Shown here: positions 24,001 through 30,000 of the stretch, in pieces
Layout: the number at the start of each line of letters is the position of its first letter
Position numbering within the stretch: position 1 is the stretch's first letter
Source: Escherichia coli
GTDB lineage: Bacteria; Pseudomonadota; Gammaproteobacteria; Enterobacterales; Enterobacteriaceae
Length of the DNA: 64,000 nucleotides
Assembly (NCBI RefSeq): GCF_003991155.1
Contig: NZ_CP031293.1
Reading direction: 5' to 3' (one strand)
Made by a program: the position numbers

Positions 24001-27000
24001 TGTGAATTGGATCAGGTGAAATTAATGTTTTTGATTAATAATCAAAAGGTAATGTGTTTAATCATTAATGAATAAGCGGGAAATTACATATCAATGCTCG
24101 AATTATCCATGACGTTACCGATTAAAGTGCAAAATGGTGGATTATTTATTTCCCGTGGCGTAGGGAGGCATCCGGCAAGGCGGCTGGAGTCATGGGAAAT
24201 TATCTTTGTCGAAAAAGGTCGATTAGCGATTCAGGAAGAAGAGCGGATATTTCTGGTCGATGCGGGAGAGAGTTTATTACTCTGGCCGAACCGACAGCAT
24301 GTTGGGGTGGAGGATTTTCCCGCCGATCTCAAATTTTACTGGCTGCATTTTGAGGTTAAAGCGCCGGACAACGATCCGCGCTGGCTCACTCATCTTAGCG
24401 TGCCGCAACAAACTAAGGTTGCCGATCCGCAGGTGCTGGTGGCCTTGTTTCGCCAGTTCTTAAGCGAACAGGAAAAGCATCAACGCACTCCGGCGCTGGA
24501 GTTTATTGTGCTGCTGATTTTGCAGCAGCTCACCCGTGACGCGCGTCTTGATGAACAGGCCGATGGTGCAGGCACCACCCTTGCCTGGAAAGCACAGAAA
24601 CTGATTCGCACGCAATATCACCGCCCGCTTTCCACGGCGCTTTTAGCCCGCGAGCTGTACTGCAATGCCGATTATCTTGGGCGCGTCTATCGGCGGGTGT
24701 TTCATCTGACGTTAACAGAAGCAATCCACCGCCAGCGGGTGCGCGAAGCCGAAAAGCTGTTAATTAGCGAAGCGCGATCGCTCACGGAAGTGGCGGCGTT
24801 GTGCGGGTTTAATGACGTCGGCTATTTCCGGCAGATTTTTCGCAAACACACCGGCTTAACGCCAGCTGCGTGGAAGCGACGTTACAGCAAGGAACATATC
24901 AATTCGTAGTGCCGGGGCAATGAAGCCCCGGCGTGAGGGATTACTGCCCGTAATAGGCATTGGCCCCATGTTTACGCAGGTAGTGCTTATCCAGCAGTTC
25001 GTTTTGCATCGCAGGGAGCTGCGGTGCAAGCTGGCGCGAGAACAGGCCCATATAGGCGCACTCTTCCAGCACCACGGCGTTATGCACCGCATCGGCGGCG
25101 TTTTTTCCCCAGGCGAACGGGCCGTGAGAATGCACCAGTACAGCCGGGATTTGTGCCGGGTTCAACCCACGTTCTTCGAAGGTTTTAATGATCACTTCGC
25201 CGGTCTGGTATTCATACTCGCCGTTGATCTCCTCTGCGGTCATCTGTCGCGTACAGGGGATGGCACCATAGAAGTAATCAGCGTGCGTGGTGCCCCAGGC
25301 GGGGAGATCCAGCCCGGCCTGCGACCAGATGGTGGCGTGGCGCGAGTGGGTATGCACAATACCGCCAATTTCGGCATAGCGACGGTAAAGCGCCAGATGC
25401 GTTGGCGTGTCGGACGAGGGTTTTTTTCTGCCTTCCACCACCTTACCGGTGGCTATCTCAACCACTACCATATCGTCGGCGGTCATCACGTTGTACTCGA
25501 CGCCGGAAGGTTTGATTACCATCCATTGCCGCGTTTCGTCTACCGCGCTGACATTGCCCCAGGTGAACGTCACCAGATGATGAACGGGAAGCGCCAGATT
25601 CGCCGCCAGCACGTCGGCTTTTAGTTGCTCTAACATATAAATCCGGCCTCCTGCATACGCGCTTCAATCCAGCGCCGCGCCTGAATAATCTCCAGCACCG
25701 GCTCTTTGGCTTTTTCGGTCCACATCTCAATCAGAAATGATCCGCGATAGTTCAGTTCATGCAGCGTTTTGAAGATGCCAACGAAATCGACGCAGCCTTC
25801 GCCAAACGGCACATCACGGAACTGTCCGGGGCTTTGCTCGGTCACTGGCTGGGTGTCTTTCAGGTGGATCGCGGCGATACGGTCAATGCCCAGTTTCAGT
25901 TCGGCGGGAACATCATTGCCCCAGGCGCTGAGGTTGCCGACGTCCGGGTAGACGGTGAACCACGGCGAGGCGAGCATCTCGTCCCATTTTTTCCATTTGC
26001 TGATGGAGTTCATAAACGCGGTATCCATAATCTCCACCGCCAGCATGACTTGTGATGCCGCCGCCTGTTCGACTGCCCACGCCAGCCCTTCAGCAAAACG
26101 TTGTTGGGTGCCTTCGTCGTGGTCTTCGTAATAGACGTCATAACCTGCCAGCTGGATGGTGCGAATGCCGAGATCGCGCGCCAGGCGAATCGCTTTACTC
26201 ATGATTTCCCGCGCCCGTTCGCGCACTGCCTCGTCCCGGCTGCCAAAGGGAAAACGACGATGGGCAGACAGGCACATTGACGGAATGGCAACACCCGTTT
26301 CGATCATCGCAGTGACCAGCGAAGCACGTTGTGCGGCGCTCCAGTCAAGACGTGAGAGCCGTTCGTCGGTTTCATCCACCGACATTTCGACAAAATCAAA
26401 GCCACAGCTTTTTGCCAGCACCAGCCGCTCCGGCCAGGAGAGATCTTTCGCCAGCGCTTTTTCATAAATCCCTAACGGATGATTACGCACGCGCACCTCC
26501 CCAGATGGCATCAATTTGTGCATGGAAATCGCCAGCCACCTGCGCCGGATTTGCTGCGCCTGCCAGCGCCCGCCCGGCAATAAAGGCTTTCACGCGGATA
26601 TCTTTAAACAGCGGCAGGTCAGCAGGGGTAATCCCGCCGGTAATGGAAAGCTCAAGGCCGATATCGGAAAGTGCCTTCATGCGTGCCAGATCGGCTTCGC
26701 CCCACTGTTGCCCGCTGGCCTGTGCATCACGACCACGATGATAAATGGCCTGCCGCACGCCAATACGATGCCAGTCGCGGGCGTCGTCCAGCGTCCAGTT
26801 ACCGAACAGCTCTATCTGAATTTCACCACCGCAGCGTTGCGCCATGGCGTGGCCTTTTTCCACCGTCGCGAGCGGCGCAGCGCAGATGATGGTCATCCAG
26901 TTGGCACCCGCGCCAAACGCCTGTTGTGCGAGCGTTTCACCCGCGTCGGCGACCTTCCAGTCAGCAACGATGATTTTATCCGGGCACTGTTCGCGCAAGG

Positions 27001-30000
27001 CTTTTACCGCGCCAAGCCCTTCGTTTAAACAGAGAATGGTGCCCGCTTCGACGATATCGACGCTGTCTTTTAACAGCATCACGTCGCGCTGTGCGTCTTC
27101 AAGTGATGAGTGGTCGAGGGCCAGTTGCAGAAGTGGTCGGCTCATAATGTGTGCTCCTTGATGCGGGCGTGAAAGCCCTGAAGTGCGGCAATGAGATGCT
27201 GATAGCGTTGGTATTTTTGTTGGTAAAGCTGATGTGCGGTCATATCCGGCAGCAGGGTGCGTACTGGGTGCTGTAAATCACGTTGGGCTTCGCTGAAATC
27301 GCGATAAACTCCGGTGCCGACGCGGGCGGCAAGTGCCGCACCAAAGCAGCCGGTTTCTTCCACCTGCGGCAGCTCGATACGCAGACCGCTGACGTCCGCC
27401 AGCATTTGCATCCAGACATCGGAGTGCGCCGGACCGCCAGTGACGCGCAGGGTGTGCACATCAGTAAAACGTTCGCGCATCCGGTTGAGATGGGTCATAT
27501 GGCTGAACACCACGCCTTCATAAATTGCCTGCAACAGGTGTGCGCGGGTGTGAATGGCCTGCATCCCGTAGAAACCGCTGGTCATCTCCAATCCGGCGTT
27601 GCTGCCGTACAGGAACGGCAGGAAAAAGAGATCGCCCCCGGCCTTCGGCAAGCTGGCAACGGCCTGGTTAATCTCATCAAACGAGATTTCTCCCCACTGT
27701 GCGGTAAACCATTCGAGGTTGCCGGAAGAGGTGGGGCTGGCTTCGTGAACGATAAATTGACCATCGTTAACGTAGCGACCATAGACATACGGATGCGCTT
27801 CACCGTCACGCAAACCACGGGTTATGCCGCTGGTCACCGCCCAGGTGCCCATCACCGCATTAAGGGTAAATTCGTCTTCGATCCCGGCACAGAGTGCGGT
27901 GGAAACCACATCAAACAGGCCGCCGACAATGGGCGTACCCGCTTTCAGACCGGTCAGTGCGGCTGTCTGAGCGGTGATTTCCCCGCAGATTTCGGCAGAT
28001 CCGACAACAGGCGGCAGGGCGTGGTTGATTTCAGCGATCCCCAGCCAGTCGGTGAGACACGGGTCATATTTCCCGCGACTCATGTTGTAGAGGTTGGACT
28101 CGGAAATATTGCTCTCTTCACAGCCTTTGACGCCAGTTAAACACCAGCGCAGGTAGTCGTGCGTCATCATCACGCAGCCAATTTGCGCGTAGCGTTCTGG
28201 TTCGTGCTCTTTCAGCCAGCGTAACAGCGACACCGGATGCCCGGTCCACAAGGTTTGTCGCGTCAGCGGGTAGAGTTTTTCCGGGATGCCATCTTCCTGC
28301 CAGCGACGAACGATTTCCATCGCCCGGCGGTCCGAGGACAAAATGGCGTTACCGAGCGGATTGTCGTTTTTATCCAGCAAAAACAAGCCCTTTCCCTGTG
28401 CGGAGATGCCGATACCGACAATTTGTTCCCCGCTAACACCAGAATGAGTAAGCAGGGCGCGAATGACAGCCATGCAGCACTGCCACAGTTCTGCCATATC
28501 GCGCTCTGCCCAGCCTGGCTGCGGGCTTAATGCGCACAGCGGCAGGCGCTGCACGCCTGCCTCCCGGCCTTCGCGGTCATACAGCCCGGCTTTCAGCCAG
28601 CTACCGCCACAATCTAACCCCAGCCAGTATTGCGTCATGGTTTATTGCACCTCATCCACGGCTTTCAGCAGATCAGCTCCCTGCGGCACATCTTTAACAA
28701 ACATGTCGCGAACCTGATTACCCAGCGCGTCGCTAAAGGCTTTGCGGTCGAGATCGGTGATGACTTCCACGCCCGCTTCTTTCATGCCATCGATGATTTT
28801 TTGCTGATCTTCAGCAACCAGTTTGCGCTGGTAGTTACCCGCTTCTTGTGCAGATGAAACTAGCGCCTGCTGGAATTCCGGGCTTAAGCCATCAAACTTC
28901 GCTTTGTTGATCACCACCAGAAGCGGGGAGTAGGCGTGGTGCGTCAGAGAAAGGTACTTCTGTACTTCGAAAAATTTTGCTGACCAGACGACGTTGATCG
29001 GGTGTTCCTGAGCGTCGATAGTGCGCGTTTCCAGCCCGGTATAGACTTCGGCAAACGGCATCGGGATCGGGTTAGCGCCAAAGACTTTGAATGCGGCGAT
29101 ATTCATCGGGCTATTGTTGGTGCGGATTTTCAGCCCTTTCAGGTCGGCAGGTGTTTTCACTGGCGCACGCGAGTTGGTGACATCGCGCCAGCCGTTTTCC
29201 CAATAGGCCAGTACTTTCAGTCCTTTACCTTCAAGGGAGACTTTCAGGTCATCACCGACTTTGCCGTCGAGCGTTTTATGCGCGTGGGCGGTATCGCGGA
29301 ACAGGAAAGGGACATCAAGCAGGTTCATCACAGGTGACAACCCGGCAAAGTTATTCGAGCCGGACATTTCCATATCGATGGTGCCGCCACGTACGCCGCT
29401 GATCATCGCCTGTGCGTTACCGAGAGTACTGTCCGGGAACAGTTTTAATTTCAGCTCGCCTTTGGTTCTCTCCTGCAATAAATCATTGAATTTTTTCGCC
29501 GCAATATGTTGCGAGTCGGTTTGTGAGGTTTCATAACCGAAACGTAAAGATTGCGCCGCCAGTGAAGATGTACTAAATGCAGCCAGGCCAGCAATGAATA
29601 ATGCGTAGGTTACAGAGCGTAATTTCATAATATTTTCCTTTTAATTAATCCATTTCAAAGGGAGGATGATGAGATCGGGAATAAAAACAAATACGACTAA
29701 TAATGAATATAAAACCAGGACGTAAGGGAAAACGCCTCTGACTGCATCATCGAATTTGAGTTTTGCCACCCCTGAAATAACGTTAAGCACATTACCGATA
29801 GGCGGTGTAATTAAGCCGATTGAGCAGTTAATGATAAACATGACACCGAAATAAATCGGATCGATTCCTGCCTCTTTAACTAAAGGCATTAATACCGGAG
29901 TAAGAATTAACACCGTCGGCGTTAAATCCATGACCATGCCGACAATCAGGATAGCCAGCATAATAACGATAAACAGCAGACGCGGTGAATCGACCAACGG

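Follow-up and report, generated by a model that had tools for sequence, protein, structure and literature searches.

Gene boundaries in the lyxK-sgbH-sgbU-sgbE block of an Escherichia coli yiaK-S operon: the GTG start of sgbU and the question of translational coupling

Introduction

Where translation of sgbU begins, and whether the overlaps that join it to its neighbours tie their translation together, are the two questions raised by a short interval (positions 25630–27145) of the 64,000-nucleotide stretch of Escherichia coli DNA analysed here (contig NZ_CP031293.1, assembly GCF_003991155.1; hereafter the window). The interval is the distal part of the yiaK-S (yia-sgb) operon, yiaKLMNO-lyxK-sgbH-sgbU-sgbE, whose genes are on the minus strand. 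A mechanically listed open reading frame (ORF) gives SgbU 316 residues. The original prediction, made from the sequence, regarded this ORF as over-extended at its upstream end and placed the start instead at a GTG (position 26490) behind GGAGG, so that sgbU would overlap the end of sgbH by 8 bp; it also noted a 4-bp overlap of lyxK and sgbH and took the arrangement to imply tight translational coupling.

We are highly confident that translation of sgbU begins at GTG 26490 and yields a protein of 286 residues, with a strong Shine-Dalgarno (SD) sequence (GGGGAGGTG) within the last sgbH codons, and that the lyxK/sgbH, sgbH/sgbU and sgbU/sgbE junctions have spacings of -4, -8 and -7, respectively. 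There is nothing new in these gene boundaries, overlaps or the GTG start, all of which are already in the reference annotation, and their significance is small beyond annotation hygiene: the GTG-start SgbU of 286 residues is correct and the 316-residue ORF should not be used. Some degree of coupling at these junctions is, we think, probable.

Gene boundaries and reference annotation

A megablast search with window positions 25500–27300 matched 4856 of 5426 complete E. coli genomes, several of them with 100% identity. In the RefSeq annotation of a strain identical over this 1.8-kb query, the relative coordinates are 4663–6159 for lyxK, 6156–6818 for sgbH (labelled ulaD), 6811–7671 for sgbU (861 nt, 286 residues) and 7665–8360 for sgbE (labelled araD), giving overlaps of 4, 8 and 7 bp. 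The curated K-12 MG1655 record (b3580–b3583) has the same relative coordinates, with SgbU (NP_418039.2) again of 286 residues, and five more divergent E. coli alleles (93.8–97.8% identity) are annotated with the same three overlaps and the same length of SgbU. The gene order, yiaJ / yiaKLMNO-lyxK-sgbH-sgbU-sgbE, and boundaries identical to the reference identify the locus as the yiaK-S operon. Window and K-12 thus share genes, order, all three junctions and the GTG start, at a DNA identity of 94–99% gene by gene. They differ in that residue 5 of SgbU is proline in the window and glutamine in K-12, in that K-12 lacks two in-frame upstream starts kept by the window allele (ATG 26511 and TTG 26514) and in that a block of AraC, MFS and GH127 genes 3' of sgbE in the window is deleted in K-12.

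The two overlaps originally predicted are borne out by both annotations and by the minus-strand sequence. The lyxK stop codon (TGA, 27144–27142) and the sgbH start codon (ATG, 27145–27143) share an ATGA, whilst the sgbH stop codon (TAA, 26485–26483) and the sgbU start codon (GTG, 26490–26488) are contained in GTGCGTAA. The C-terminus of SgbH that defines this second overlap is fixed by the NF009831 profile, which matches over positions 1–220 of 220 with 448.9 bits against a cut-off of 294. A third overlap in the interval, which went unmentioned in the original prediction, joins sgbU (TAG, 25632–25630) to sgbE (ATG, 25636–25634) through the 7-bp sequence ATGTTAG. The coordinates of all these features are collected in Table 1.

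Table 1 Genes, overlaps and translation signals of the lyxK–sgbE block, in window coordinates
Feature	Position	Strand	Evidence
lyxK (L-xylulokinase), 498 residues	27142–28638	-	ORF list; RefSeq annotation of identical strain and K-12
sgbH	26483–27145	-	NCBIfam NF009831 profile; annotation
sgbU (L-ribulose-5-phosphate / L-xylulose-5-phosphate 3-epimerase), 286 residues	25630–26490	-	TIGR00542; 3CQH alignment; annotation
sgbE (L-ribulose-5-phosphate 4-epimerase), 231 residues	24941–25636	-	ORF list; RefSeq annotation of identical strain and K-12
AAGGAG, SD for sgbH, within lyxK 3' end, 8-nt spacer to ATG	27154–27159	-	Read from sequence
ATGA, overlap of sgbH start and lyxK stop (-4 spacing)	27142–27145	-	Read from sequence; at least 55 of 80 orthologous loci
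GGGGAGGTG, extended SD for sgbU, within SgbH codons Trp-Gly-Gly	26494–26502	-	Anti-SD duplex; allele invariance; cross-genus conservation
sgbU GTG start codon	26488–26490	-	RefSeq and K-12 annotation; NF009689 alignment; homologous codon comparison
GTGCGTAA, overlap of sgbU start and sgbH stop (-8 spacing)	26483–26490	-	Read from sequence; 21 of 80 orthologous loci
AGGAGG, SD for sgbE, within sgbU 3' end, 10-nt spacer	25647–25652	-	Read from sequence
ATGTTAG, overlap of sgbE start and sgbU stop	25630–25636	-	Read from sequence; annotation; same geometry in 60 of 80 loci
Upstream extension of 316-residue ORF (25630–26580), non-coding for sgbU, within sgbH in another frame	26491–26580	-	No SD; free sgbU-frame variation

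Junctions of this sort are ordinary. Of the 28 co-directional adjacent gene pairs counted in 48 kb of annotation surrounding the locus, six overlap (xylG/xylH by 23 bp, lyxK/sgbH by 4, sgbH/sgbU by 8, sgbU/sgbE by 7, selA/selB by 4 and two fimbrial genes by 8), in line with published fractions of about 15–30% (PMC6728339, PMC12548453). Within the operon only the four enzyme genes overlap, the upstream yiaK-S junctions being short gaps of 11, 117, 2, 12 and 3 nt.

The start of sgbU within E. coli

The sgbU frame offers six candidate starts: TTG 26580, ATG 26523, TTG 26514, ATG 26511, GTG 26496 and GTG 26490. The anti-SD duplex with the 3' end of 16S rRNA has a calculated energy of -12.6 kcal/mol for GTG 26490, which lies 5 nt beyond the GGAGG at 26500–26496, and of -7.2 kcal/mol or weaker for every other candidate. 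The bare motif (GGAGG-N5-GTG) is not rare: the window has three matches to it where 1.03 would be expected, and at least as many occur in 10 of 100 shuffles, so support for the start comes from its position and conservation and not from the motif.

The position is given by homology. SgbU belongs to the L-ribulose-5-phosphate 3-epimerase (SgbU/UlaE) family, scoring 519.7 bits against the TIGR00542 cut-off of 272.15, with profile positions 1–279 of 279 falling on residues 32–316 of the mechanical ORF. Positions 2–285 of NF009689 fall on residues 32–315, position 2 being the residue right after the GTG 26490 codon. The alignment to the solved paralogue UlaE (3CQH) also begins at residue 32 of the ORF, and UlaE aligns with SgbU from its own fourth residue onward. 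The first 30 codons of the 316-residue ORF lie 5' of the GTG, and annotation, profiles and alleles agree that they are an upstream over-extension, as had been predicted: between alleles the sgbU-frame amino acids of these codons vary freely and the SgbH frame is conserved. The TTG at 26580 that opens this ORF was rejected, with an SD of -0.1 kcal/mol.

Comparison of E. coli alleles points the same way. GTG 26490 and GGGGAGG are unchanged in all alleles compared, and three of four other candidate starts are lost in some of them: ATG 26511 and TTG 26514 are replaced (ATTGATG to ATCGAC) in K-12 and three other full-quality alleles, and GTG 26496 becomes GCG or GCA in four. In an exact look-up against a collection of 15 billion proteins, the 286-residue SgbU was present on at least 1000 contigs, the 297-residue K-12 form on eight (the old accession AAB18559.1 among them) and the 293-residue form of the window allele on one; the 316- and 288-residue forms were absent from that collection.

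A start at ATG 26523, giving 297 residues as in the original 1990s GenBank entry, is in our view extremely improbable. This ATG is kept in every E. coli allele compared and the K-12 protein it would yield is still found in databases (AAB18559.1, WP_001232378.1); its retention in E. coli, however, is accounted for by the overlapping SgbH codons Phe-His-Ala, which fix it. No SD lies at a suitable distance from it (the duplex reaches -5.9 kcal/mol, with an AGGTGG some 12 nt away), the 11 residues it would add vary freely between alleles, and among 80 orthologous loci (see below) an ATG at this position, 33 nt upstream, is seen in 11 only, being removed elsewhere by the synonymous His codon CAC. 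The curated K-12 SgbU record is version.2, of 286 residues, and the contig counts above, eight as against at least 1000, speak for the shorter protein. Scarcely less improbable is a start at ATG 26511 (293 residues) or GTG 26496 (288 residues) in the window allele. Both are in-frame start codons there, and the 293-residue form has been called once in public data (WP_153674277.1, the single contig mentioned above), but ATG 26511 has no SD (+0.3 kcal/mol) and is GAC in K-12 and the three other alleles, whilst GTG 26496 falls inside the SD, leaving no spacer, is the codon changed in four alleles and would give the very form that is absent from the collection; in most orthologous loci neither position holds a start codon. 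TTG 26514 was likewise discarded, given its SD strength, its loss in other alleles and its absence from other species. The original statement that sgbU has no in-frame ATG where the expected protein would begin needs qualifying: there is none at the homology boundary, but in-frame ATGs do lie upstream, at 26523 and 26511, in addition to TTG 26514 and GTG 26496.

Against the GTG start has to be set the fact that the supplements of a tetracycline start-site profiling study (TetRP, PMC4909307) and a 2026 N-terminomics study (TRAINSPOTTER, PMC13245402) contain no entries for sgbU, sgbH, lyxK or b3582. The yiaK-S operon is repressed by PlaR/YiaJ in laboratory culture (PMC6958661, PMC6237786). Sequence comparison could hardly fix the start at GTG 26490 more securely, and the case illustrates that a start position may be firmly fixed by comparative data although the operon is silent in laboratory culture.

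Conservation across species

The cross-species comparison was based on one scan of species-representative genomes, which gave 80 loci from Escherichia, Klebsiella, Citrobacter, Enterobacter, Raoultella, Kluyvera, Serratia, Pectobacterium, Pantoea and others. A few distant loci were mis-assigned by the script because the alignment did not begin at residue 1 (one from Hafnia, for example), so that the counts are lower bounds or approximations. At the position homologous to GTG 26490, 74 of the 80 loci have ATG, GTG being found in Escherichia-type loci (E. coli, E. albertii, E. whittamii and a 99%-identical metagenome-assembled genome labelled Citrobacter) and one or two others; 43 loci have no further in-frame start between this codon and the upstream in-frame stop. 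With this comparison, annotation, family profiles, E. coli alleles and orthologous loci all uphold the predicted start.

The spacing between sgbH and sgbU is -8 in 21 loci, -4 in 6, -1 in 15, +1 in 13 and +2 in 23, and always stays between about -8 and +2. The sgbU SD sits in conserved codons for Ile-Trp-Gly (ATCTGGGGAG) at the C-terminus of SgbH, and a TGGGGAG-like sequence is conserved across genera. In the other loci with -8 spacing the SD is of the GGAGA or GGAGC type, with duplex energies of about -5.5 to -8.4 kcal/mol, as compared with -11.3 to -12.6 kcal/mol for the GGAGG(TG) of Escherichia. Escherichia has exchanged the ancestral ATG for GTG while carrying the stronger SD, and it is conceivable, if rather unlikely, that the SD was strengthened at the same time, in a compensatory retuning of the SgbU:SgbH ratio. 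Since the two genes overlap by 8 bp, this base change in the start codon also put Arg in place of His as the penultimate SgbH residue; were the retuning real, the locus would provide a small worked example of an overlap tying the evolution of a start codon to that of the neighbouring protein.

Three further observations on individual alleles were made in these comparisons. Residue 5 of SgbU lies in a conserved (H/N)-P-L-G-I-Y-E motif and is proline in the window, in the other E. coli alleles compared and in all 80 loci, so that the Gln5 of K-12 (CAG; window 26478–26476) is a substitution of the K-12 lineage at an otherwise invariant residue. In Escherichia albertii NBRC 107761, SgbH is matched by tblastn from residue 8 only and the lyxK frame continues through the junction, which is possibly frameshifted or pseudogenised. 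In E. coli MLI104K2 all four genes from lyxK to sgbE are flagged as frameshifted pseudogenes, followed by a transposase; scattered single-base indels at the junction look more like assembly error than biology.

Are the overlapping genes translationally coupled?

The boundaries of these genes and the conservation of those boundaries are matters of observation; from them we infer coupling and its strength, and the tight coupling of the original prediction is plausible on the geometry of the junctions, from which alone it was drawn. If coupling operates here, a ribosome finishing one gene would stop only a few bases from the next start and might re-initiate at that start or leave it accessible to a new 30S subunit, and linked output of the four pathway enzymes would tend to result.

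The lyxK/sgbH junction is a textbook ATGA pair of the -4 (NTGA) class of spatially coupled ORFs (PMC6728339, PMC12548453), and sgbH/sgbU belongs, with TAA as its stop codon, to the -8 class (PMC12548453), the two sequences conforming to NTGA and NTGNNTRR, respectively. An SD within the 3' end of the upstream gene, typical of both classes (PMC6728339, PMC12548453), is present at both junctions. A spacing of -4 is by far the commonest, -1 and -8 (NTGNNTGA) are also enriched, and coupling is expected in the -4 and -8 classes (PMC12548453); the -7 spacing of sgbU/sgbE is not among the enriched classes listed by the review (PMC12548453). In tests on five native E. coli -4 pairs, translational coupling was seen in four (PMC6728339), and reporter studies supported coupling at short spacings, between -4 and about +25 (PMC12548453). 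Because the -4 and -8 classes are enriched and most of the native -4 pairs tested are coupled, coupling is a reasonable expectation here, and the fact that the sgbH/sgbU spacing never exceeds a few bases in about 80 species suggests selection for close apposition.

Several observations weigh against coupling, however. In one reporter study coupling efficiency fell as the overlap grew from -4 towards -25 (PMC12548453). The structure-unfolding model of coupling draws no support from the three junctions, since no stable predicted structure hides the downstream SD or start at any of them, and the junction RNA folds are no more stable than those of shuffled sequences (z = -0.21/-0.30 for sgbH/sgbU, +0.91 for lyxK/sgbH and -0.51 for sgbU/sgbE). 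The sgbU SD, at -12.6 kcal/mol, is strong enough for de novo initiation and, with no occluding structure predicted, independent SD-driven initiation is equally possible at this gene. The ulaD-ulaE-ulaF genes of the L-ascorbate (ula) operon encode the same three enzyme families in the same order, yet there ulaE starts 9 nt after the ulaD stop codon and ulaE and ulaF overlap by 1 nt, as against 7 for sgbU/sgbE; the exact geometry is thus not required for the pathway.

It is accordingly a substantial possibility, if short of probable, that the boundaries are as annotated with no meaningful coupling, each gene being initiated independently from its own strong SD and the overlaps being a by-product of compact operon evolution. 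Each of the three junctions has a good SD (AAGGAG, GGGGAGGTG and AGGAGG), the spacing of sgbH and sgbU drifts freely through the five values given above, the ula paralogues manage with their 9-nt gap, and bioBF, one of the five native -4 pairs, initiates de novo instead of by coupling (PMC6728339). It is the confinement of that drift to a few bases, together with the record of the other four pairs and of the reporters, that speaks for some degree of coupling.

Neighbouring sequence

Window positions 20478–24909 (on both strands), 3' of sgbE, carry genes for an AraC-family regulator, a major facilitator superfamily (MFS) transporter and a glycoside hydrolase family 127 (GH127) protein, none of them in K-12. 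Two pseudogene remnants of K-12, ysaC and ysaD, match the two edges of this block (at window ~24806 and 20783–20595, the latter with 88.9% identity), so that K-12 has lost about 4 kb here by deletion. The GH127 ORF is listed at 675 residues from TTG 22505, a second over-extension of the ORF track (22457–22505, minus strand) that would reach 38 nt into the MFS gene; in RefSeq the protein has 659 residues, beginning MNISEV 10 nt after the MFS stop codon. A hicAB toxin-antitoxin pair is annotated just past the GH127 gene.

The region 24941–34647 is unusually divergent within E. coli, 2320 of the 4856 matching genomes showing only 90–95% identity to the 1.8-kb query. Identity to K-12 falls from about 98.8% (yiaM, yiaN, plaR) to 94.3% at sgbE, beside the island/deletion junction, a pattern that suggests old allelic lineages or recombination. 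An Rfam scan of the window gave no match in or near 25630–27145; its gathering-level matches were naRNA4 at 20409–20487 (minus strand, 63.4 bits), the sok antitoxin RNA at 53376–53472 (plus strand, 68.8 bits) and the cspA thermoregulator at 55216–55643 (minus strand, 500.9 bits).

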